From the UHGV virus genome UHGV-0090440: a stretch of 64,000 bases of DNA; one strand, 5' to 3'. A program made the position numbers and the translations under genes. Origin of the DNA: a virus. The notes under the pieces were generated by a model that saw only the letters and a program-made list of their open reading frames with translations, ran no database searches and had not been told where the DNA came from. Below are positions 117 through 47,467 of the stretch, in pieces. Every line of letters starts with the position of its first letter. Position 1 is the first letter of the stretch.

Positions 117-1019
117 CTTCATTATTGCAATTATATCGTTAGCAACTACACGTGTTGACGCCTTGCAGGAAACCGACCGTCTGGCTGCCATATGATGTAC
201 TTTAAACCCGTTTCCTTCATATAGTTCACGGATGCTTGGCGCACCACTATTTGTAATCACTACCTTAGCGCCGCGCTGGTGGGCTTCCACCAATAGAGAT
301 ACCAGCCGTTTCTGTTCGTCGAAACGGAAGCTATTTCCTGAATAACTGGTAAACCCTTCTGTATCCGGCAGCGGTTCATACGGCGGATCGCAAAAAATCA
401 CATCGCCTTCACCAGCCGCCTCGATGACGCCAGCAAAGTCACCTGATACAAAGGACGTGTTTTTGAGTACGTCATCAGCCAAAAATGCCTCCATCTCTGC
501 ATGTGGGAAGTAGGGCGCTTTGTATTTGCCATACCCCACGTTGAACTCGCCATTTTGGTTGTACCGCGTTACGCCATTAAAACAGTGCCGATTAAGGTAC
601 AAAAAGGCGGCAGCATGATGTAGCTGGTCATACTTTCCTCTGTTAAATGCCTCACGCACTTCGAGGTAACCGTCAGCGTTGTTGTAATTTTGGAAAAAAC
701 TATATGACAGCGTGACGAGCGAATGTCCTTCTCGCTGCAATGTCTGATAGAAGTTAATCAGGTCACCGTTAATATCATTAAGCAGGTTGTGGCGAAATCC
801 TGCATTCGTAAATACAGAACCGCCACCAACGAACGGTTCTATTAACCGCTTGCCGTGTGGTAGATGCTCAAGCACTGTAGGCAACTCTGAGAATTTACCG
901 CCTACCCATTTGAAGATCGGACGCTCATATTCATCCGGAGTCCGAATGGTGCGCATATAGCTAATTTCAGCCATCGTATCCTGTTTTTCTATGGCTATGC
1001 TTGCTATAGATTTACTCAT
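114..1019 (-). CDS. dam: DNA adenine methyltransferase (Dam family)
   Basis: Translation carries Dam hallmarks (FKWVGGK near the N-terminus, EPFVGGGSVF AdoMet motif, DPPY catalytic motif) and aligns along its length with E. coli Dam as I recall it. Start taken at ATG 1017-1019 (MSKSIAS), which overlaps the upstream gene's stop by 8 nt; the ORF-track N-terminal extension is discarded. Confidence 0.85.
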   Translation of the reverse strand: MSKSIASIAIEKQDTMAEISYMRTIRTPDEYERPIFKWVGGKFSELPTVLEHLPHGKRLIEPFVGGGSVFTNAGFRHNLLNDINGDLINFYQTLQREGHSLVTLSYSFFQNYNNADGYLEVREAFNRGKYDQLHHAAAFLYLNRHCFNGVTRYNQNGEFNVGYGKYKAPYFPHAEMEAFLADDVLKNTSFVSGDFAGVIEAAGEGDVIFCDPPYEPLPDTEGFTSYSGNSFRFDEQKRLVSLLVEAHQRGAKVVITNSGAPSIRELYEGNGFKVHHMAARRSVSCKASTRVVANDIIAIMK

Positions 1020-9444: not shown

Positions 9445-10068
9445 ATGAAGGATGGTGTAGTGAAGTTAAGGGCTTTAGGGGCCGCGCTCGCGGCTATGTT
9501 GGGATGCGTATCTGCTAATACTGCCAATGCAACTGCGTTACCTGCACAATTCAGGGCAGGGCAGCAGGTTATGAATAACGCTGGTGGAGATCATTCACAA
9601 GCGGCCATTATGGACTTTTGCAAGAGGGAGGGCATTCCATTACGGCCTGTTGGAACTCAGTTTATTGGTAAAACTGACTTTTGCGTTTTTGCATATACAG
9701 CATATCTGACGGACAAAGCTATAACAAAAACAGGTTATTCAACCAAAGATACTCTTTCCAGATTAAGTCAGGGATGGCAGCAATTCGAAGTGTATCGCCA
9801 GCAAGGATTAGGTGAGTTATTGCAACCTCTTTTTATGCTTGCGTTGGTGCCAGAGGGGCAGCAATTTTTGGTTAAAAAGGGAATGCTTCGCCAAAGTGAT
9901 ATTGCCGGGTTCGATAGCATGATGGCTTATGAGCGCAAACTAACCGAGCAGCGAAATAAAAAACCATCTGCTTCATGTGTGCAAAGTAAAACAGCAGAAT
10001 ACAGTGCAGTAGCCGGGCCTTTAGCCAAACAAATGGCAGAGCAATGGTGTAAAAAATACGGGCAATAA
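9445..10068 (+). CDS. secreted protein of unknown function
   Basis: N-terminal signal-peptide-like segment (LRALGAALAAMLGCVSANTANA); preceded by an AT-rich intergenic region. Confidence 0.45.
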   Translation: MKDGVVKLRALGAALAAMLGCVSANTANATALPAQFRAGQQVMNNAGGDHSQAAIMDFCKREGIPLRPVGTQFIGKTDFCVFAYTAYLTDKAITKTGYSTKDTLSRLSQGWQQFEVYRQQGLGELLQPLFMLALVPEGQQFLVKKGMLRQSDIAGFDSMMAYERKLTEQRNKKPSASCVQSKTAEYSAVAGPLAKQMAEQWCKKYGQ

Positions 10069-10088
10069 GTTACGCAGCGGAGGCAGAA

Positions 10089-10481
10089 TTGAAAAGATTG
10101 GCTATTGCTTTACTGGCGTCTTTCCCTTTGATCGCGAGCGCCGGAAATTTACAAGTTAAGTGCGGTCGGTTTGATATAAAAATCTATCCAGATGCCATAT
10201 TTCTGAATGGGAATAAGGTTGATAACGCACACCGAAAAACTGAATCTGACGTAATGAGCTATGTGTTCCAGGAGTATGCGGAGATGGGGGGAACTTACAC
10301 GCTGTACTCGCTGGATGTTCCTTCTCGCGGTGATATGACATTATCCCATCAATGGCAGAACGCCGATGGCGAAGCTCTGCGCGAGGTTAAAACAGAAAAA
10401 TGTGGCACTTTCCATTCTTTTAAAGGGAAAGCGCCAAATGTTAAATCTGTGCTTGAAAAACAGCGCGCAGGTGAGCTTTAA
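10089..10481 (+). CDS. secreted protein of unknown function
   Basis: Signal-peptide-like N-terminus MKRLAIALLASFPLIASA; RBS GGAGG 8 nt upstream. Confidence 0.45.
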   Translation: MKRLAIALLASFPLIASAGNLQVKCGRFDIKIYPDAIFLNGNKVDNAHRKTESDVMSYVFQEYAEMGGTYTLYSLDVPSRGDMTLSHQWQNADGEALREVKTEKCGTFHSFKGKAPNVKSVLEKQRAGEL

Positions 10482-11367
10482 ACACCTTTAACCACGGAGA
10501 TGCCGTTCCCTGCACGATAGCGGCGGGGAACGGAATTCTCCATCAGGTCACGAATTACTCCCGCCTCATGTAGTTCCACTGTTTCCCAGTATCTGTTTGT
10601 CGCCAATTACGCCCCGTTCCGCCAGGGGAAGGTATGAACGAGCTTCTGCTTCGGTTGCAGCCATGACGCAGATATACAGGTGTTTTTGGCAGGAATAGAA
10701 ACGCCAGATAAATTCAGAATGAGTTGGGGTGGGGATAGTAGCGATATTGGCAGCCTCCTTTGACTAAGTTAAGGAGCTACCGCGTGAGGTTCCAATCCCG
10801 GCACCCGTTTTTCTAAGGTGCCGTAGAAATATACCCCACGATAAGGCCAGGGCGCAAAAGTCAGTATTTTATGCTTTGGCGGATTTCTTCCGGGCTTGCT
10901 TGCAGGCGTAGGCCATTGCTTTAGCTTTCACTTCATCCAGCTTCCCGGTGATCACTTCTTTTCCGAGAGTGACAAACCAGTCATAGCAACCGCCAGTGAT
11001 GTTCTGGATTTGAAAGTTGAGGTAGCGAACGGTCATTTTGACACCCCCAGCGCGAGTAAAGAATGCAGATTATCGCGTGAGTGGCGGACAACGAGTGACG
11101 GGAAAAGACAGTAGCTGTTCATAGTGTAGTGACTCCTTGCTTTCGGAGCCGCCATCGACTGTTCCACGGTCTGGTGGCGGCGCAATAAAGGCTGGAACAC
11201 CGTGAGTCAACGGGGGCTTTTCAGCCACCTATATTGCACCGCCATAGGTATGGCGGCGGCAATAATACGAAAAACTATACAGTTTGTCTCAAAAAGTTGA
11301 CCGGTGTGCCAATCGGTAGTGAATGTACATCGGAGAAATTTATAATTCAACTTAAAATGTTAGAAAA

Positions 11368-17730: not shown

Positions 17731-18415
17731 CTATCAAGAACTGCGCGAGGCGGCGGAACAGGCAACGCAAGATGAATGGGTAGCATATATTTTGCCGGGT
17801 CATAACGGCATTTATCCTGCGCGCACGTCTGAGGGTAGGCATTGCGGATACTTTATTGACTGGCCTGGCATTGATGGACAAAGAAATGCTGGTGCTAATG
17901 CCCGTTATATCGCGGCTATCCCACCAAAAGTTGCGCTGGCACTCCTGGGCGAAATTAAGCGCCTGGAGGACACAAATATTGATGCTATGTGCCGAATAGC
18001 ACCGCTTGAGACTAAGCTCGCGGCTCTGGTGGCAGAGAACGCCGGGCTGAAACTCGCAATGGCTGTAACTCTTAATCATGTGTCGGTCACGGATGCAGGG
18101 CAGGCCGGAGTTGCTGCAATGATAATCAACGATGCTCTGCACCACAGCGAAACCCCAGCCACCGATGCTTTTCTGGCTGAAGGGAAGACTGAAGCACGCA
18201 AGGAAGGCGCTTATTTTGTGGCGAACAGAATGTTGGCAGCCTGGAAAGCTGGTTTTATTGATGATACTGCGAAGAACGCCGCGGATATTGCCCGGATGAT
18301 CCTTACCTCTACTGAGTTTATGGCTAATGCGCCGGAAGGCGATTTTGATCGCTCATTCTCTGATGGCGTTCTCGAAGATATCGCCGAACAGCTTCGTAAA
18401 GGAGTCATCCAATGA
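17717..18415 (+). CDS. Ea22/Ead-like protein (paralogue 3)
   Basis: N-terminus KINYQELREAAEQATQDEW and C-terminal [11 protein letters not shown]...[11 protein letters not shown] shared with paralogues. Confidence 0.4.
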   Translation: MIKINYQELREAAEQATQDEWVAYILPGHNGIYPARTSEGRHCGYFIDWPGIDGQRNAGANARYIAAIPPKVALALLGEIKRLEDTNIDAMCRIAPLETKLAALVAENAGLKLAMAVTLNHVSVTDAGQAGVAAMIINDALHHSETPATDAFLAEGKTEARKEGAYFVANRMLAAWKAGFIDDTAKNAADIARMILTSTEFMANAPEGDFDRSFSDGVLEDIAEQLRKGVIQ

Positions 18416-19122
18416 GCAAGATTGATTATCAAAAGCTTCGTGAAATCGCTGAAAAAACAAAAATTGCTGGTGAAGCACCTGTAATGCCTTTCGATCAGCG
18501 AATTAATGCGCTTAACGATTTTATGAAGCACTTTTCGCCAGATATCGCGCTGGCATTGTTGGATGAATGGGAAAGAAACCAGCAATACATAAAACGCCGC
18601 GATCAGGAGAACGAGGATATTGCGCTAACGGTAGGGAAGCTGCGCGTTGAGCTGGAAGGCAAAGACAGCAAAATAGCCAATCTTACCGCCGAACGCGATG
18701 CTCTTCGTGAAGGTGAGATGGGCGACGCTAGGCATAGCAACACACGGGCCGCAGCTGATATCTACTTCCAACTGGTCGAGGAGTGCGAAATTCCTGCTGG
18801 CGGTTCTCTGGTCGAGTACGTTGACGATATGCGCGAGAAGCTGGAAGCCGCAGAGAAGCGCATTGCAGAACTGGAAAGCAACGAAGTCCGTGAAGTCGGA
18901 AATCAGTTTCTTGTTGTTCGCCATCCTGGGAAAACTCCTGTCATCAAGCACTGCACTGGTGACCTGGAAGAGTTTCTGCGGAAGTTAATCGAACAAGACC
19001 CGTTAGTAACTATCGACATCATTACGCATCGCTATTACGGGATTGGCGGTCAATGGGTTCAGGATGCAGTTGAGTATCTGCATATGATGTCTGACGCTGG
19101 CATTCGCATCAAAGGAGAGTGA
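18412..19122 (+). CDS. Ea22/Ead-like coiled-coil protein (paralogue 4)
   Basis: N-terminus SKIDYQKLREIAEKT and coiled coil LEAAEKRIAELESNE parallel the other paralogues. Confidence 0.4.
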   Translation: MSKIDYQKLREIAEKTKIAGEAPVMPFDQRINALNDFMKHFSPDIALALLDEWERNQQYIKRRDQENEDIALTVGKLRVELEGKDSKIANLTAERDALREGEMGDARHSNTRAAADIYFQLVEECEIPAGGSLVEYVDDMREKLEAAEKRIAELESNEVREVGNQFLVVRHPGKTPVIKHCTGDLEEFLRKLIEQDPLVTIDIITHRYYGIGGQWVQDAVEYLHMMSDAGIRIKGE

Positions 19123-19123
19123 T

Positions 19124-19954
19124 ATGAGCGCTATAACCAAAGATCGACTACTGACAATCAAGCAGTGGCGCGAAACATACGGACCTGGTAGCAACGTTGT
19201 ACTGCCAGCAGAAGAAGCGGAAGAACTGGCGCGGATTGCGCTGACATCGCTGGAAGCAGAGCCTATTGGTGAAGTTTCAGAGAAGCAACATGGCCTTGTT
19301 ATGGATGGGACGGTAGACCTTGGCGGGAAATCAACTTATCGCATCATTAAGGGAGAAAAAGCGATGAAGTTGTTGCCGTTGGGGACGAAGTTTTATACCG
19401 CACCGCCAGCGCCGATAACGCCGGAGGCCATTGAAAACGCAATTGAATACATCCGCAGTATCGCTTTTCACATCGATGAAGACGATTACCACGGCAAACA
19501 TATTGCGTATTTCATGCGACAAGCATTGGCCTGGCTGGAAGGGCATTCATGCAGCGACGACAGACAGGGTAAAGCCGAGAATCAACCAGTACGCGGCAAC
19601 CATGCTGCCGAATCCAATCGCGGTAATGAGTGGACCGGCAATCCTGATATTGATAACGCAATCATCATGCTCGACCGCATAGATACGCTGGAAAATTGCG
19701 ATGATGACCGTATTGAGGCTGTTAAGGCCGTTTTGCGTAGACTGGCTGGCAACCATCCGGATTTTCCGGATAGCTCCCAACAATCGCCCAAGGAAAGCGT
19801 AAAAACCACTCTGGAAAGAGGCTATCTTGAGGCCGCATTAAAGATTAAGCCGGGCCATACGCTAGGCGTCATTGATGCCATGTTGGTTCATGAAATGGCG
19901 AAGGCTTTATTGCCGCTGGTGGCTGATAAAATTCCGAATAAGGCCGATATCTGA
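19124..19954 (+). CDS. hypothetical protein
   Basis: 276-aa ORF, last gene of the plus-strand block, followed by a terminator. Confidence 0.35.
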   Translation: MSAITKDRLLTIKQWRETYGPGSNVVLPAEEAEELARIALTSLEAEPIGEVSEKQHGLVMDGTVDLGGKSTYRIIKGEKAMKLLPLGTKFYTAPPAPITPEAIENAIEYIRSIAFHIDEDDYHGKHIAYFMRQALAWLEGHSCSDDRQGKAENQPVRGNHAAESNRGNEWTGNPDIDNAIIMLDRIDTLENCDDDRIEAVKAVLRRLAGNHPDFPDSSQQSPKESVKTTLERGYLEAALKIKPGHTLGVIDAMLVHEMAKALLPLVADKIPNKADI

Positions 19955-19965
19955 TCACCATGCTA

Positions 19966-19997
19966 AAATCCCCTCAATTCACAGAGGGGATTTTTGT
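19966..19997 (+). terminator. rho-independent terminator
   Basis: Stem atcccctc/gaggggat with 9-nt loop followed by TTTTGT. Confidence 0.55.
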
Positions 19998-19999
19998 AT

Positions 20000-20266
20000 A
20001 TGTTGCATAGAGTTTTATGGAAAAGCGTTATTGTCGGCGCGATCTTGGCTATGTCTGGGTGTGCAATGGTGCAATACAACGACGGTGAAAAGGTAAGCAT
20101 CCAGTCAGATGGCTGGTATGGGCTGGATAGTCTGCAAAAAACCGCAGATAAAGCCTGTCAGCAATATGGGAAGTCTAAAGCCGTATATCAGCATAGCGCG
20201 AACGCTAATCCCCATCTCGCGCCCGGTACGGGCGTTCAGAACACCATTTGGAAATGCGAACCATAA
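20000..20266 (+). CDS. putative small lipoprotein
   Basis: Start at ATG 20000 (MLHRVLWK...); signal-peptide-like segment ending in AMSGC (lipobox-like). Confidence 0.35.
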   Translation: MLHRVLWKSVIVGAILAMSGCAMVQYNDGEKVSIQSDGWYGLDSLQKTADKACQQYGKSKAVYQHSANANPHLAPGTGVQNTIWKCEP

Positions 20267-20305
20267 TGCTGGTGGCATCTTTGTTACAAAGAGGAACACC
20301 TGCTC

Positions 20306-20656
20306 TCAATGCAGGGGATGAGATTTAACGAAATCGATCACCCTATCCTGAACTTCAGAAAGAAGGTCTTTTTCACGCGCCAGGACGTCAGGATATTGAC
20401 GTTCTGGCCTTACCAGATGCCGGAGCTTCCCATTAAGCAGAATGGCCTCAGAAAACACTTTTACGCTGTGCTTTATCCCCTCTGTTTCACTTTTCAGCGT
20501 CAAAATAAAGCGCAATTGCTTATTAGCCTGATTCGGATTCAATACACGAATTTGCAGTTCGGCTATGCTGTTTCGCAATGGGATTGATGCCACCACACTG
20601 GTGCAGTCCCTGATTGTCTGAATTGAACGGCTAACATTGAGAACGTTATTGTGCAT
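20306..20656 (-). CDS. hypothetical protein
   Basis: 116-aa ORF on the opposite strand between the lipoprotein and hot. Confidence 0.25.
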   Translation of the reverse strand: MHNNVLNVSRSIQTIRDCTSVVASIPLRNSIAELQIRVLNPNQANKQLRFILTLKSETEGIKHSVKVFSEAILLNGKLRHLVRPERQYPDVLAREKDLLSEVQDRVIDFVKSHPLH

Positions 20657-20688
20657 GTGCCTGATCCACTAACTCCTGGAGGTTTCTT

Positions 20689-26232: not shown

Positions 26233-26264
26233 TAACTTTAAATAATGCCAATTATTTAAAGTTA
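26233..26264. promoter_or_regulatory. rox-like recombination site (lox analogue)
   Basis: TAACTTTAAATAAT-GCCA-ATTATTTAAAGTTA: perfect 14-bp inverted repeats around a 4-bp spacer, about 150 bp upstream of dre. The arm shares TAACTT with loxP (ATAACTTCGTATA) and the site matches the published rox sequence as I recall it. Confidence 0.8.
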
Positions 26265-27523: not shown

Positions 27524-27549
27524 GCCCCGCATCGCGGGGCTTTATATAT
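27524..27549 (+). terminator. rho-independent terminator
   Basis: ccccgc-atc-gcgggg hairpin followed by TTTATATAT; overlaps the pacB stop on the other strand. Confidence 0.45.
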
Positions 27550-29050
27550 CCAGATCCGGCATTTCGATATCCGCCAGAACCTGATCTCGGAAAGTTGCCA
27601 TTTCGGCACCAATATCTTCATTAGCAGGCACATAGTCCACCAGCATAGTGAAGCAGTAGGTATCCCATCGGTCAGGCGATTTGATGTTTAGCTTTTGCCG
27701 CATGTGCTCTTTGCGCATCATCGCCATTTTCCCTTCTTCATTCATTAAAAAGGGGATTTTTGACGCTTGCTCTGCCGTTTTAGGGTCACTGTCTATCCGC
27801 ATACGCCCTGACTTTATGGCATCACGCGCCATGATATTTGCGTAGGCACGCTGATTAACAAATCGCTCCCTGTCTTTGTTCGCAAACATGGGTTTTCCCC
27901 ACCGAATACGTACCGGGTTCGCACCACGACGCACCAACTGCGCACACGTATCAGAACCAAAACCATCAGCATCAACCGCGATTGTTATATTCGGGTATTT
28001 TTCCGGCGTACATTCGTTATATATGAAGTCAGCAAAGGCCAATGGGTCCATAGTGCCAGGCATCTCCATTACCTTAAAGTTAACAACGCGCCGCTTATCC
28101 CTGTGACCTGATACCTTGCAGATGTTGAGGACCGACTTATCTCGCCCATTACCAACGTCAGCCGTTGCCACCCATCCCCAGTTTTTCTCCAACAACACCT
28201 TGCGGCGAGCAGAGCGATCGCATTCATCACGACCAAGCAAATAGCCGTTAATTTCTCGTGGGAACTGACCAAGCACCTTGACCATGTACTCAATAGAATC
28301 GCGCCCGCCATATTCCAGAAGCTTCTCCTTGATGAATTGTGGTGTGACGAACGGTGATTCTTCCGAGTTAAGAACAATTGCTGTCCAGATCCCTTTCGGG
28401 TTGTCTGGGGTTTTTGCTCGAGAATGGTGCGAATCGTAGAAATAACCACTTGGCCTTGTTGGCTGGGATAGCATCAACATCCGGTTATCTTCTTCAGTAA
28501 GAGCACCGGTCATTACGCCGATCGCCTTATCAGATATACCAGATGCTTCATCCAGAATTAGAAGCAAATGTGCCGCGTGTTCCCCCGCCAGCGCTTCTTC
28601 GTTGCCGAGTCGATAACCTTTGCAGAGAACTTCCCAAATCCCCTTACGGGAGCGCTCATAAAACATGGTGTCAGAGAGGACAAAATAGGTCTGCAACCAC
28701 CCATGACGCTTAACTGCATTCGCCCAATACTGTTTAACGTATTTGAATACGCCTGTTTTTACCTGGCCTATCTTGTTAGCAACAATGATGACACGGGCAT
28801 CGGGGAACAGGATCATAAAAATCAACAGCAACATCGCGGTAAGGGACGACTTCCCCGTTCCGTGTCCGGACGTGACGGTAGTCCTACTCCCCGTTTCCTG
28901 TACGGACTGAATGATCTGCTGCTGCTGCGGGGAGGGGAACATCCCAAAAATATCGACAACAGCCTGGGTAAAGTTGTAGCGGTATTTGATTACCATATCG
29001 CGCCAGCGTGGATCTCTGGTGACGCATTTAACCTTGCGCCCGCCAGCCAT
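27542..29050 (-). CDS. pacB: terminase large subunit (PacB-like)
   Basis: 502 aa; Walker A-like TSGHGTGKSS and Walker B-like LLLILDEASG in the N-terminal ATPase half; sits directly downstream of a PacA-like gene with start/stop overlap. Confidence 0.7.
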   Translation of the reverse strand: MAGGRKVKCVTRDPRWRDMVIKYRYNFTQAVVDIFGMFPSPQQQQIIQSVQETGSRTTVTSGHGTGKSSLTAMLLLIFMILFPDARVIIVANKIGQVKTGVFKYVKQYWANAVKRHGWLQTYFVLSDTMFYERSRKGIWEVLCKGYRLGNEEALAGEHAAHLLLILDEASGISDKAIGVMTGALTEEDNRMLMLSQPTRPSGYFYDSHHSRAKTPDNPKGIWTAIVLNSEESPFVTPQFIKEKLLEYGGRDSIEYMVKVLGQFPREINGYLLGRDECDRSARRKVLLEKNWGWVATADVGNGRDKSVLNICKVSGHRDKRRVVNFKVMEMPGTMDPLAFADFIYNECTPEKYPNITIAVDADGFGSDTCAQLVRRGANPVRIRWGKPMFANKDRERFVNQRAYANIMARDAIKSGRMRIDSDPKTAEQASKIPFLMNEEGKMAMMRKEHMRQKLNIKSPDRWDTYCFTMLVDYVPANEDIGAEMATFRDQVLADIEMPDLDI

Positions 29051-30414
29051 TAATCATCCTCCGGCGGTTCTATCGCGATATCATCATCTCCGGCGTCATA
29101 CCCTGCATCAGATGCATCATAATCACCGTAAATTTCAGCCGTTGCCGAAGGGTCAATATCCAGCTCTTCGTCGTTGGCCTCGAATTCTCCAGCTTTACGC
29201 TCGCCATTGCGGTCATAATCTCCGCACCCCAATTCTTCAACAATGGTTGCCACATCCGCCCGGCGCTCTGCCAGCCATTGCGGATGGTTAGCCTGAAGCG
29301 TTGCAAACTCCCTTGCCTCTTTGTCCAGCTGTTCATCATCAACATCATTGACGTCAGAAACAGGTGGTTCGAGAAGAGTGATAGCTTTCGCCGCGCGCGC
29401 CGCGAGGATAGCCGGGACGCTGACCCCCTGGCGCTCGATGTATTCAGCAACACCGATATCATCCAGTTCCTCGCGCTCACGCATACGTATAGCGGCGGCG
29501 ATAACTCTGGCTGCGCGTGCGTCAGCGCCAATGCGATATTCAATCTCTTTGCCACGCTGTTCGGCCTGTAGGCGTGCTAATTCGAGTTTTTCTCTGGCCT
29601 CAGCCTCTTTGAATGCTTGCTGGCGAGCGCTCTGACGAAGCTTTTCATCCCCCTGTCGCAGCTTTTGTTCGGACTGATATATAGCTGCCAACCTACTGAT
29701 AAAATCATTCATGTAGTAGGCCGCGTCACTGATTAGACCGAGAAGGCGCTGCCCAGGGTGCATTCCTTCTGGCTCTTTATCGCCCAAGGTGTCTATTTCC
29801 GCCTGTAGACGTTCGGCCTCCTGATCAACAATGCTTTGATACTGAAGTGCGCGCTCTTGCGCCATTTGAATTGCTAACCGCAGGTGTTCTTCTGCGCCGT
29901 TCTTCATCATATCGCGAGCAACATTCGTAGTTGGCAATGTGGCACGCTGCACAGCACCGTCAGGGATCATTGCAGAAGATCCCTCAATTTTTGGGGCGCT
30001 TTTATCTTCTTCGGGGATCATTTTCGCCATTTTTTCGCGCAATGATCTCCTGACGGATTCTTTTATCTCATTGTTATTATTTGAATTATTTTCATGATCC
30101 GAAGTTTTCTTTCTCGGCATACTTCGGAAAGAACCTGCGCCCTGCGAATTGTCAATTTCTGTAAATTTTGTTTTTTCTGCACCCTCTTCCTGCTTTTTTG
30201 TTGCTCTTCCTGCCCGTTTTTTTTCAGGTGATTTGGTGCTTTTTTTTGTTGTCTTTACCTGCGACCGCACCTCATTTTTTTTCATATTGAGATGCTTTCT
30301 GGCTGTATTGAAGCTAAGGCCATGCTCCTCACAGTATTCCTTTACAGTGATCCCTTTTTCTTCACGCAACGCTATAAAGCGGGCGCGGTGCTCCTCCCAA
30401 TTAACCAGACTCAT
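29050..30414 (-). CDS. pacA: terminase small / pac-recognition subunit (PacA-like)
   Basis: N-terminal HTH-like region (ITVKEYCEEHGLSFNTARKHL), then a long charged region; positioned upstream of pacB as in P1. Confidence 0.55.
   Translation of the reverse strand: MSLVNWEEHRARFIALREEKGITVKEYCEEHGLSFNTARKHLNMKKNEVRSQVKTTKKSTKSPEKKRAGRATKKQEEGAEKTKFTEIDNSQGAGSFRSMPRKKTSDHENNSNNNNEIKESVRRSLREKMAKMIPEEDKSAPKIEGSSAMIPDGAVQRATLPTTNVARDMMKNGAEEHLRLAIQMAQERALQYQSIVDQEAERLQAEIDTLGDKEPEGMHPGQRLLGLISDAAYYMNDFISRLAAIYQSEQKLRQGDEKLRQSARQQAFKEAEAREKLELARLQAEQRGKEIEYRIGADARAARVIAAAIRMREREELDDIGVAEYIERQGVSVPAILAARAAKAITLLEPPVSDVNDVDDEQLDKEAREFATLQANHPQWLAERRADVATIVEELGCGDYDRNGERKAGEFEANDEELDIDPSATAEIYGDYDASDAGYDAGDDDIAIEPPEDD
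29964..30099. other. candidate pac site (GATC-hexamer cluster inside pacA)
   Basis: Five GATC sites within 136 bp (29964, 29978, 30016, 30044, 30096) embedded in TGATC/GGATC hexamers inside pacA. Confidence 0.3.
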
Positions 30415-30803
30415 AAAGCAACACCACGCTTTTTAACGGCGGCATTCCACAGCTTATTCGCCATGTCCACCAGCTCTCGTTGCTCTTTTCGCGCCTGTTC
30501 GACTGATTTCCTGCTACAGTTTTTAACCAGTAAACTGCCGTATTCAGGGGTTCGCCCACGCACCTTGAACTGATATCCGTTCAGGCCATGCAACCAGTAT
30601 TTTCGTGGGTAAACGCGATCATCAAGCTCACAGATTGCCCTGCTTGAACGAACAAAATGACGAATGATGTTAGTTACACTTACTCGTGAGACATGGAGAT
30701 GAGGGTATTTTTCTTTGGCGAGAATGGTAATTTCAGTGACTGTCAGATAGCAGTCAGCCCTAATCATGATATCCGCAATTTCTGCGCTGCTGATTTGTTC
30801 CAT
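30411..30803 (-). CDS. hypothetical protein upstream of pacA (position analogous to a late-gene regulator)
   Basis: 130-aa ORF, stop overlaps the pacA start. Confidence 0.3.
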   Translation of the reverse strand: MEQISSAEIADIMIRADCYLTVTEITILAKEKYPHLHVSRVSVTNIIRHFVRSSRAICELDDRVYPRKYWLHGLNGYQFKVRGRTPEYGSLLVKNCSRKSVEQARKEQRELVDMANKLWNAAVKKRGVAL

Positions 30804-30879
30804 TAATCCCCCGGGCAGGAAATGACCGAGGGGATGATAATGAGAATGTTAAAATTGTATAGACTGGCAAAAAGATGAT

Positions 30880-30911
30880 TGTATTAGAAAATTAATACTA
30901 AATATCTAACG
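30880..30911. promoter_or_regulatory. operator-like motif pair
   Basis: GTATTAGAAAATT ... ATATCTAACGC, upstream of the 30803 gene / pacA operon. Confidence 0.4.
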
Positions 30912-32398: not shown

Positions 32399-32562
32399 CT
32401 AAAGGGCCAGATTACTGTTAATTCCGCTTACGCTTTTTGCCAGGACCGCGTAAGGCTTTTGCTGCTTGCTCGACCCCATATACAACCACCAGCAGAAATA
32501 AAAATGTCCACCAAGGGTTCTTATCGGCAAACGTCCAAAATTCCATCATGTTCTCTATTTGG

Positions 32563-33390
32563 TTATTTCACCGGAACAAACGGAACAGCGGTATTACTGG
32601 TCATATACTGCGGTAGCGTTCCGTTCCATTTGTTGATCGCTTCCAACTCCATAACGCCGGGGTTCTGGCGCAGAGCCTCACCGCGTAAACGAATGGCATC
32701 AGCTTCAGCCTGGGCTTTTGTGCGAATGGCATCGGCCTGTCCGGCAGCTTCTGCGCGCAGCATGTTGGCTTCTGCTTCGCGTTGCTTGACTTCCTGCTCG
32801 CGTTGCAGAGTTTTCTGGTTCGCCGTGACTTTGGCATTAATGCTGTCGATAACGGTTGGCGGGTACTCCGGCTTGCCCACATATGAGAGGCTCATTACCT
32901 GAATACCGATGGGCGTCATTTCTTCCTGGATGTCTTTAAGAGCTGCATCCAGTAGTTCAGACTTGCCACCGTCGATAAATTTGTCGGTGGTCATTTTGCT
33001 GGCCAGTCGGTTAAGTGCGTCGGCAATCTTCTGGCGCAGATCGGTGTCGGTAATGTCATCCACGCCTTTGCGGTAGGTCTGAAATACAGTTGTGACTTTT
33101 GCCGGATCAACCTTGTAAGCTACACCAATGTGGTAACCAATTGTTGTCCCGTCGCTCATTTGGAAGCTGAACGGATCATCATAGGTCTTCATTTGCTTAA
33201 AGGTCGGGAAGATATAAACTTCTGTGTTCCAGCCTGTCCAGTAGCGACCAACGCCAACTACTTCGCCGACACCTTTATCATCCCCCAGCTTATTTACTTT
33301 GATCCCTACATTGCCTGGTTCTACCCGGTCGCATCCGGTCAGACATAAAGAACCAAAAATAATCGCTGCACTAATCAACGTTTTTTTCAT
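32563..33390 (-). CDS. plp: SPFH/band-7 domain lipoprotein (Plp-like)
   Basis: Signal peptide with lipobox LTGC; SPFH-like core; coiled-coil C-terminal region (QREQEVKQREAEANMLRAEAAGQADA). Confidence 0.6.
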   Translation of the reverse strand: MKKTLISAAIIFGSLCLTGCDRVEPGNVGIKVNKLGDDKGVGEVVGVGRYWTGWNTEVYIFPTFKQMKTYDDPFSFQMSDGTTIGYHIGVAYKVDPAKVTTVFQTYRKGVDDITDTDLRQKIADALNRLASKMTTDKFIDGGKSELLDAALKDIQEEMTPIGIQVMSLSYVGKPEYPPTVIDSINAKVTANQKTLQREQEVKQREAEANMLRAEAAGQADAIRTKAQAEADAIRLRGEALRQNPGVMELEAINKWNGTLPQYMTSNTAVPFVPVK

Positions 33391-33607
33391 TAATCAATTT
33401 CCTGGTTTTTTCACGAAAAAAGACTACTGCAAAAGCCGGGTAAATGAGCGCGAGAAGGACTCCCAACAATACAAGTATTGTGCTGTCAGATGAGATCATA
33501 TTTGGCAAAAGCCAAACATACAGAACCAGTGACACAATCAAACAGAGGACGGCATAAATATATAGCCGCACCCATAGCGTTCGACATTTGTTCGGATTGT
33601 TCTGCAT
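33371..33607 (-). CDS. upl: small membrane protein upstream of plp (Upl-like)
   Basis: 78 aa with two hydrophobic helices; overlaps the plp start. Confidence 0.45.
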   Translation of the reverse strand: MQNNPNKCRTLWVRLYIYAVLCLIVSLVLYVWLLPNMISSDSTILVLLGVLLALIYPAFAVVFFREKTRKLINEKNVD

Positions 33608-33754
33608 CCTCTCACTCCATTATTCAACGAATAAAAAAGCTGCGGTGCCTGGTGCCTCCAGGTGACGTTAACCAGTTAACAATTAACGCCGGGATGTTTG
33701 ATTTAACCACTACGGAGGATTGTTTTAACTGTTCCGCGTGCGCTTAGCCGCATT

Positions 33755-46811: not shown

Positions 46812-47467
46812 AAAAAGCCCCGACCAGGCCGGGGCATCACGCTTCAAGTCACGATCCAATCATTACCGACTATATCAGCCGTCGATAAATCAACTTCCCG
46901 GATCTGGAGTCCATCAGTGTGCCTCCGCAATGCTGGGATTGGTAATATTGCGATACCAGGGATTAGTGTTTGGTTGTGGGGAAGTAGAGAAACGACCAGT
47001 AAGAACACCATACTGATCAGGGATCAGAGAACGGGCTTCTTTTTCGGTTGCGGCAATTGCGAAGTGATCGCAGTGTTTTTGCAGGGAGTGGAAACGCCAG
47101 ATGAATTCTGGACGTGAGCAAGGATTGGCATTAACCATAGTTACGGCCTCACTAACAGGTTTAACAACCTGCTACCCGCTGTCAAACAGGTGGCAGGACG
47201 TGACAGGGTTGACAGACTGGCGTTAGTGAAACCAGCAGGCCGAAGCCTCCCCATCACGCCCCACCATAATTCGGGCGTAACGCGATTTACGGACACAAAA
47301 ATACCGCAATATCGGAAATCTGCGGTTGTCCGCACTAACATTCAGGCTGTCAAACCTGGTCGCAGAATTTGCTACGACGGCATTAATATAAGCCTGAAAA
47401 CATGGAAGATCAACTAAAAATTTCAGCAATGGATGACTTCAGTCGATGATGCAGATCATACATTCCG

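Follow-up and report, generated by a model that had tools for sequence, protein, structure and literature searches.

A cluster of five GATC-centred elements within pacA is a candidate packaging site of D6-type phage-plasmids

The pacA locus and its GATC elements

The region described here shares 98.7% identity with the P1-related plasmid prophage Escherichia phage D6, and BLAST comparison of the whole 64,000-nucleotide stretch of DNA that was analysed (the window) to D6 shows mosaic collinearity. The gene order is lpa-pacA-pacB-c1-rox, as in P1, with lpa located upstream of pacA (Table 1). At the nucleotide level pacA is 98.7% identical to the pacA of phage D6, and its predicted product has only 21% identity to P1 PacA (E = 4e-11). 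PacA consists of an N-terminal helix-turn-helix, to which a weak HTH_23 match at residues 7-42 corresponds, a Lys/Asn-rich linker at residues ~45-160 and a C-terminal domain; judged by the conservation pattern, the linker is poorly conserved and the C-terminal domain is conserved. PacB is 56% identical to P1 PacB over 488 aa, has a weak Terminase_6N match, and is presumed to be the nuclease and ATPase partner of PacA. The window also encodes a Dam-family DNA methyltransferase that is 99.3% identical to D6_63 and matches Pfam PF02086 (E = 2e-56), TIGR00571 dam (E = 1.6e-73), E. coli Dam (2g1p, E = 7e-58) and DpnM (2dpm, E = 2.8e-46).

The first-pass annotation of this DNA had reported five GATC sites within 136 bp of pacA, each within a TGATC or GGATC hexamer, and had put these forward as a candidate methylation-sensitive pac site. 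The sequence confirms the five sites and their extent, with TGATC or GGATC on one strand at every site, and the open reading frame that contains them is indeed a PacA homologue, adjoining the gene for the PacB homologue described above. The sites fall in codons 106-150, in the linker-coding part of the gene, and the array that they form is ~135-137 bp long (pacA nt 316-450). Using 22 oriented sites from four lineages, we derived the consensus A/G followed by GGGATCATT, with per-position counts out of 22 of G17 and G21 ahead of the GATC and A21, T19 and T17 after it. Read on the pacA sense strand, the orientation of sites 1-5 is forward, forward, reverse, forward, reverse. Four of the five sites keep a TGATC pentamer core (TGATCC at three sites and TGATCT at one; the remaining site is AGATCC). 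Element 3 reads AATGATCCC on the sense strand, where it encodes Met-Ile-Pro, and the two exact copies of AATGATCCC in the 64-kb window both lie within the array.

D6-like pacA genes were gathered from plasmids, IMG/VR and metagenomes. They form three deep sublineages, namely the D6/window type, an Escherichia marmotae plasmid type (Emarm) and the L048/L069/L071 type, which are 62-64% identical to one another over pacA nt 130-480. Among 30 distinct D6-like pacA genes, a set that includes one contig stopping after site 1, all five sites are present except in two genes, each of which is minus one site. In D6-type genes, sites 2 and 4 are always written with a rare GGA or AGA codon and then TCN. 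Element 4 is the weakest copy in the sublineage of the window; at the same position Emarm and L069 have GGGATCATT, and L048 and L071 have GAGATCATC. A possible distal sixth element, in the part of pacA that encodes the helix-turn-helix, has a GATC at nt 63 that is retained in every D6-type gene and missing from the Enterobacter hormaechei (Ehorm) type described below. Constraint on the protein (Gly-Ile-Thr) may explain its retention.

Table 1. Features of the window, with positions in window coordinates. For elements 1-5 the position of the GATC, its pacA nucleotide and the hexamer on the + strand are given.
Feature	Position	Strand	GATC; pacA nt; + strand hexamer	Sequence, description and basis
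pacA	30414..29050	-		Small terminase / pacase A subunit, 454 aa; ORF list and translation
pacB	29050..27542	-		Large terminase / pacase B subunit, 502 aa; adjoins pacA
Dam-family (D12 class) N6-adenine DNA methyltransferase gene	1019..117	-		Profile and sequence matches
rox, Dre recombinase target	26233..26264			Sequence read; D6 annotation of rox halves
Proposed pac recognition array	29957..30105			Five GATC-centred elements, consensus GGGATCATT, and immediate conserved flanks
Element 1	30093..30101	-	30096-99; nt 316; TGATCC	CGGATCATG on pacA sense strand
Element 2	30041..30049	-	30044-47; nt 368; TGATCT	GAGATCATT; outer 5' arm of nested dyad, pairs with element 5
Element 3	30014..30022	+	30016-19; nt 396; GGATCA	GGGATCATT on + strand; inner dyad arm
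Element 4	29975..29983	-	29978-81; nt 434; AGATCC	GGGATCTTC; inner dyad arm
Element 5	29963..29971	+	29965-68; nt 447; GGATCA	GGGATCATT on + strand; outer 3' dyad arm
Possible distal sixth element	30346..30354	-	nt 63	GGGATCACT; HTH-coding part, Gly-Ile-Thr
Inverted-repeat arm, 17/18 nt	29957..29973			CCGTCAGGGATCATTGC; partner 30039-30056; repeat search
Inverted-repeat second arm	30039..30056			GCAATGATCTCCTGACGG; partner 29957-29973; repeat search

The window as a whole has no excess of GATC (231 observed vs 243 expected, one per 277 bp). The array is its tightest GATC cluster for k = 3, 4, 5 and 6 sites. When 231 sites were placed at random, an equally tight cluster of five arose somewhere in the 64 kb in 24% of trials, so that over the whole window density by itself lacks significance (P = 0.24) and is weak evidence. 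Composition does not account for the cluster either, since the AT-rich sequence at the array (37.5% G+C vs 48% in the window) predicts ~0.5 GATC where five are present; the density therefore does not match the local AT-rich background, a match that had been named at the outset as a reason to discard the candidate. The heptamer ATGATCY occurs 27 times in the window, counting both strands, and four of these occurrences are inside the 137-bp array stretch. We consider that the strong and convincing case for the array lies in the comparison of its sequence with those of relatives, and not in density.

Comparison with P1 pac and the P1-like family

We re-read P1 pac from NC_005856 as a reference. 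Four hexamers start at pacA nt 195, 202, 214 and 229 and three more at nt 325, 337 and 348; all are TGATCA or TGATCG, and the record's annotation places the cuts at nt 276-285 and an IHF site immediately ahead of these. The first-pass description of the P1 packaging site as clustered TGATC(A/G) hexamers inside pacA, in a 4+3 arrangement, is borne out by this record. The literature describes P1 pac as a 161-bp site inside pacA whose seven TGATCA/G repeats contain Dam sites; the hemimethylated site is believed to be bound, and cleavage to be promoted by full methylation, packaging involves PacA, PacB, IHF and HU, and synonymous recoding of the hexamers lowered the titre ~9-fold (PMC10028697, which also summarises the P1 pac work of Sternberg and Coulby 1987, 1990 and of Skorupski et al. 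1994).

The D6-type array is similar to P1 pac insofar as it occupies the linker-coding 5' third of pacA, upstream of pacB, c1 and a recombinase site, and is made of clustered short elements that each contain a Dam GATC with the core TGATC/GATCA. As in P1, the element encodes its own Dam-type methylase. The distance to the recombinase site is also alike: the array lies 3.7 kb from rox, and P1 pac (90.8 kb) lies 4.0 kb from lox (94.8 kb), in both cases going from pacA through pacB towards c1, the way in which pacA is transcribed. The D6 type differs from P1 in its motif, GGGATCATT (hexamer TGATCC/T), and none of its five sites is TGATCA/G. It differs further in having one ~135-bp array of five sites and no left block, rather than four and three hexamers flanking a ~95 bp spacer with the cut site, and the earlier caution that the arrangement is not that of P1 was well placed. 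The D6-type elements are asymmetric, occur in both orientations and form nested dyads (sites 2-5), and the array sits ~120 nt deeper in the gene than P1 pac (nt 316-450 vs 195-351). Judged from the sequences, the kind of system is the one known from P1 and the D6-type architecture is different.

The IHF consensus WATCAANNNNTTR, allowing at most one mismatch, has no match in 29850-30420, a consensus scan that by itself leaves IHF binding possible; it likewise has none in pacA nt 1-560 of three relatives, and the same search recovered the annotated P1 site. A-tracts are abundant upstream of the array. The position of the D6-type cut is not predictable from sequence. The location of the proposed signal inside the small-terminase gene has parallels in P22, SPP1 and Sf6, headful-packaging phages in which the pac site is embedded in the small-terminase coding sequence. 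The pac sites of these three phages are not GATC arrays, their terminases are unrelated to PacA, and the sites are not known to be Dam-gated.

A tblastn search of the phage collection with D6-type PacA matched D6 itself only. PacA is thus too diverged to reach P1, and PacB was used as the anchor, by which 22 loci were retrieved from one-genome-per-species contigs. Within pacA nt 100-480 of 17 P1-like lineages, the linker-coding segment that also holds the D6-type array, there are 121 GATC sites, compared with 27 expected, and the TGATC/GATCA core is present in nearly all. Enrichment is seen in every lineage having a PacB at least 57% identical; these come from Enterobacter, Pantoea, Citrobacter, Serratia, Erwinia, Xenorhabdus, Buttiauxella and one Vibrio. 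The pac-like arrays identified in other P1-like plasmid prophages are those of Enterobacter sp. BRE11 (L007), Pantoea (L008-L010), Xenorhabdus (L011, L013 and L014), Serratia (L015), Erwinia (L016), Citrobacter (L017), Buttiauxella (L028) and Enterobacter hormaechei p60214CZ_1 (L006). The experimentally mapped P1 pac agrees with this family pattern; for the other P1-like prophage arrays we found no experimental test in the literature.

The usual layout in the family is that of P1, with a left block at nt 145-255 and a right block at nt 315-380. The left block often consists of TGATCA at an exact 12-bp period, which encodes xxDH peptide repeats. Most P1-like prophage arrays have a left block of 3-7 TGATCA and a small right block, and the D6 type differs from them in having no left block. 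The Buttiauxella array (L028) resembles the D6 type in using TGATCC, and the Vibrio diabolicus cluster (L018) is of mixed hexamers. We rejected an extension of the pattern to marine relatives with a PacB at most 50% identical (Shewanella, Colwellia and Vibrio), which have a short upstream ORF and no GATC cluster except for a modest one in L020; the architecture is thus limited to systems with a PacB at least 57% identical, that is, to Enterobacterales and Vibrio diabolicus L018.

The nearest outgroup of the D6 type is the Enterobacter hormaechei plasmid type (L006), with PacB 86% and PacA 58% identical. It has a left block at nt 157, 169 and 181 and a downstream array at nt 380, 397, 408, 435 and 471, and it shares with the D6 type the GGGATCATT 9-mer and the downstream block. 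By its sequence, the Enterobacter hormaechei type carries all three blocks. In a protein alignment, D6 element 1 falls roughly opposite the hexamer that opens the right block in P1, L015 and L016 (SDH vs NDR/RDH), and D6 sites 3-5 fall beyond the right-block position of the family.

A probable pac array and the competing explanations

On the basis of the pacA and pacB homologues, conservation at the DNA level, the common motif, the family pattern, the Dam-family gene, the distance to rox and the biology of P1 pac, we think it likely that D6-type phage-plasmids use the five GATC-centred elements as their pac recognition array, and that this array is a rearranged variant of P1 pac.

Clustered GATC is also typical of sites controlled by SeqA and Dam. 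The array could in principle be a Dam/SeqA-responsive element that has nothing to do with packaging, such as a promoter or operator that responds to methylation and serves pacB or the late genes, a SeqA sequestration patch or a cluster like that of a replication origin; the Dam-family enzyme encoded in the window would suit such an element, as would the spacing of same-orientation copies, which by their coordinates are 51-52 bp apart, close to five helical turns. What speaks against it is that no sigma-70-like promoter is present on either strand of 29700-30830, the sole promoter-like match in 29700-30900 being at 30861-30834 on the minus strand, just upstream of the lpa start. There are also no DnaA boxes in 29900-30150 (at most one mismatch) and no iterons, the direct repeats being the GATC elements and one 9-mer pair only. 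These negative scans make an origin or a simple promoter unlikely, and a Dam/SeqA-controlled replication origin of the oriC or P1 oriR type was rejected because it would have DnaA boxes or iterons. Moreover, the homologous location and motif core in P1 are those of the experimentally defined pac. We give an element of this kind a low probability.

The dyad symmetry of the array raises a second alternative. The 17/18-nt inverted repeat surrounds sites 5 and 2, and an RNA fold of 29940-30120 (minus strand) has an energy of -45.8 kcal/mol (z = -2.98). The consensus structure of seven D6-type sequences contains 23 pairs, in which site 2 is matched to site 5 and site 3 to site 4; of its cells, 95.7% are paired, and six pairs are changed on both sides in a compensatory manner across sublineages. 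Its covariation score was reached by 0 of 500 shuffles and was far lower in slid controls. Taken alone, the inverted repeat, the fold and a covarying structure that beats both kinds of control could indicate a conserved hairpin or cruciform, either in the pacA mRNA, where it would control translation or stability, or in the DNA, with the GATC cores relevant only as palindromes. However, the independent sublineages number only three, the arms repeat a single motif in opposite orientations, which makes their pairing automatic, and the copies in the nearest outgroup pair in a different topology. For these reasons we attribute the dyads to the array itself, be it a symmetric site for a multimer or possibly a cruciform, and not to a separate RNA element; a single conserved hairpin as the main explanation was rejected on the outgroup pairing. 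A hairpin also leaves unexplained element 1 and the family-wide TGATC clusters, with their many direct 12-bp repeats. A multimeric DNA-binding protein predicts a dyad equally well, and a cruciform could itself belong to pac recognition, in which case the two readings are compatible. As an explanation that replaces pac recognition, the hairpin is in our judgement improbable.

The comparison of relatives bears most directly on whether the elements are DNA signals. GATCs elsewhere in pacA vary between clades and come and go. In seven D6-type genes from the three sublineages, the GATC columns of the array are invariant in 20 of 20 cases vs 55 of 151 other columns over nt 300-470 (Fisher P = 1.4e-8), and the spacing between sites is fixed across sublineages, with zero indels. 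Around the fixed GATCs the encoded residues shift (RRSL/KGSF, GSS/GSL/RSS, MIP/MIH). When codons were redrawn with the element's own usage and the PacA protein held fixed, five or more GATC appeared in nt 300-460 in ~0.8-1% of trials; in each of four lineages P(>=5 GATC) was 0.003-0.014, and for the protein as it stands all five sites together have a probability of ~1e-3. From the invariant GATCs, the changing residues, the rare GGA/AGA codons and the codon redrawing, we conclude at the level of sequence comparison that the DNA is under constraint as well as the protein. Some of the conservation may be at the protein level, as Met-Ile-Pro at two of the sites is also conserved as protein. Conservation of the sites in the DNA of lineages whose protein has diverged lends support to the pac-site proposal of the first-pass annotation.

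It is accordingly disfavoured by the sequences, and in our estimate very improbable, that the array is a coding by-product in which repeated peptides (two Met-Ile-Pro, Asp-His and Gly-Ser) happen to be written with GATC codons and the DNA has no function: the protein conservation of Met-Ile-Pro, the position of its two copies 51 nt (17 codons) apart as an in-frame direct repeat, and the 63% probability with which Asp-His yields GATC under the element's codon usage are outweighed by the low probabilities just given, obtained in four lineages with different linkers, by GATCs that stay while residues change (Arg/Gly through AGA/GGA, and Pro/His), by antisense-oriented copies in the array, which cannot be peptide repeats, and by the family-wide enrichment of GATC.

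Packaging model, origin and distribution of the array

If the array is the pac site, the PacA/PacB pacase would assemble on it, make the first cut and start headful packaging. By analogy with P1, the N-terminal helix-turn-helix of PacA would bind the elements together with PacB, and cleavage would be gated by the state of Dam methylation at the GATC cores. Methylation would be supplied by host Dam and by the element's own Dam-family enzyme, which is presumed, on the same analogy, to modify the GATC cores of the array; gating by methylation is plausible on this footing. On the P1 model, packaging would be expected to proceed along pacA transcription, leftward in the window. This would place rox in the terminal redundancy of the first headfuls, where Dre could circularise the DNA. 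With contig ends taken as a proxy for packaging ends, 0 of 14 metagenome loci end in pacA. A single contig from a draft genome stops at pacA nt 329, which is an anecdote.

The simplest history for the downstream shift of the array in the D6 type would be loss of the ancestral left hexamer block and gain of a new block. The D6 type would then combine the old right-block position (elements 1-2) with a newer downstream block (elements 3-5). A bolder form of this idea, which we offer as speculation and hold to be rather doubtful, is that the pac site has turned over within the gene: the 12-bp-periodic TGATCA left block was lost, downstream asymmetric 9-13-mers were recruited, and the resulting nested-dyad array, possibly cruciform-forming, works without an IHF-bent spacer. 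Were this so, Dam-gated recognition by the pacase would tolerate a complete change of site geometry, the three-block Enterobacter hormaechei type would be a living intermediate, and the sequence of the PacA linker would, family-wide, be dictated mainly by the DNA signal (xxDH and Met-Ile-Pro repeats) and not by protein function.

The GenBank records of D6 have no annotated pac feature. A full-text literature search, which key D6 papers lay outside of, turned up no mention of a pac site in D6, and an earlier description is possible. A known pac site would make it possible to build from D6 phagemids and transduction tools that are orthogonal to P1, and would help to predict which DNA is mobilised by D6-like elements. 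The array would also be a second, differently built case for Dam methylation gating a terminase, and the family survey provides a comparative data set on a DNA signal and a protein linker co-evolving in one reading frame. D6-like phage-plasmids are common: the array is present in 81 of 5426 complete E. coli genomes, in single copy and always on a ~90 kb plasmid, and it is found as well in plasmids of Salmonella, Shigella and Enterobacter.

Possible additional signals in pacA of the D6 and P1 types

The AT-rich spacer between elements 1 and 2 of the GATC array (the first two copies of the candidate pac site, at pacA nt 316 and nt 368) contains ATAACA, which is unchanged in all three D6-type sublineages (D6 and the window, the Escherichia marmotae plasmid, and L048/L069/L071), and the codons at this position differ between them (Asn-Asn versus Asp-Asn). 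ATAACA is a possible additional signal.

Two side observations concern pacA itself. One draft-genome contig (L056, IMGVR_UViG_2537562191_000026) ends at pacA nt 329, 10 nt past element 1; as a single case, this end could be an artefact of assembly. In P1 (L003), an eighth TGATCA/G-type hexamer, TGATCG, is present at pacA nt 376 (L003 4905-4908), 28 bp past the third right-hand hexamer and not among the seven usually counted.

Hexamer architecture in other lineages

In other P1-like lineages the left-block hexamer is TGATCA, with GGATCA instead in most copies of Enterobacter hormaechei p60214CZ_1. The period is exactly 12 bp in that plasmid (pacA nt 157-181) and in Enterobacter sp. BRE11 and the three Pantoea loci (pacA nt 154-214); the intervals are 12 to 24 bp in the Serratia and Erwinia loci. 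These repeats encode xxDH tetrapeptide repeats in PacA, for example GDHNHDHSGDHASDHQNDH. The sequence of the PacA linker seems to be dictated by the DNA signal. GATC-based architecture is not universal among PacB-type terminases, because four distantly related loci from Shewanella, Colwellia and Vibrio (L021, L023, L024 and L025; PacB identity 47-50%) lack a GATC cluster; the ORF upstream of their pacB is short, at about 234-259 aa.

Genomic setting of the array

Among solved structures, the methyltransferase encoded in the window is closest to those of E. coli Dam and DpnM, two enzymes specific for GATC. The array lies 3.7 kb from rox, a distance that mirrors the pac-lox distance of P1. Of 5426 complete E. 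coli genomes, 81 carry the 261-bp region of the array; each has a single copy, in every case on a plasmid of roughly 90 kb and in none on the chromosome.

Coordinates of features in the window
Feature	Position	Strand	Remarks
Dam-family (D12 class) N6-adenine methyltransferase gene	117-1019	minus	99.3% identity with D6_63
rox	26233-26264		32 bp, exact: TAACTTTAAATAATGCCAATTATTTAAAGTTA
ATAACA in element 1-2 spacer	30070-30083		pacA nt 332-345
Second-densest GATC cluster	46853-47069		5 GATC in 217 bp

The second-densest GATC cluster adjoins the icd homologue, at the junction where D6_17 and the anti-repressor D6_18 (19860-20688 in D6) are missing from the window. No BLAST match to phage D6 of at least 300 bp covers 9497-10792, 17738-19406, 32415-33640 and other gaps, and identity is only 78% in the tail-fibre region (58.7-60.9 kb). 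These unmatched and diverged segments are the usual mosaicism of D6-like phage-plasmids.
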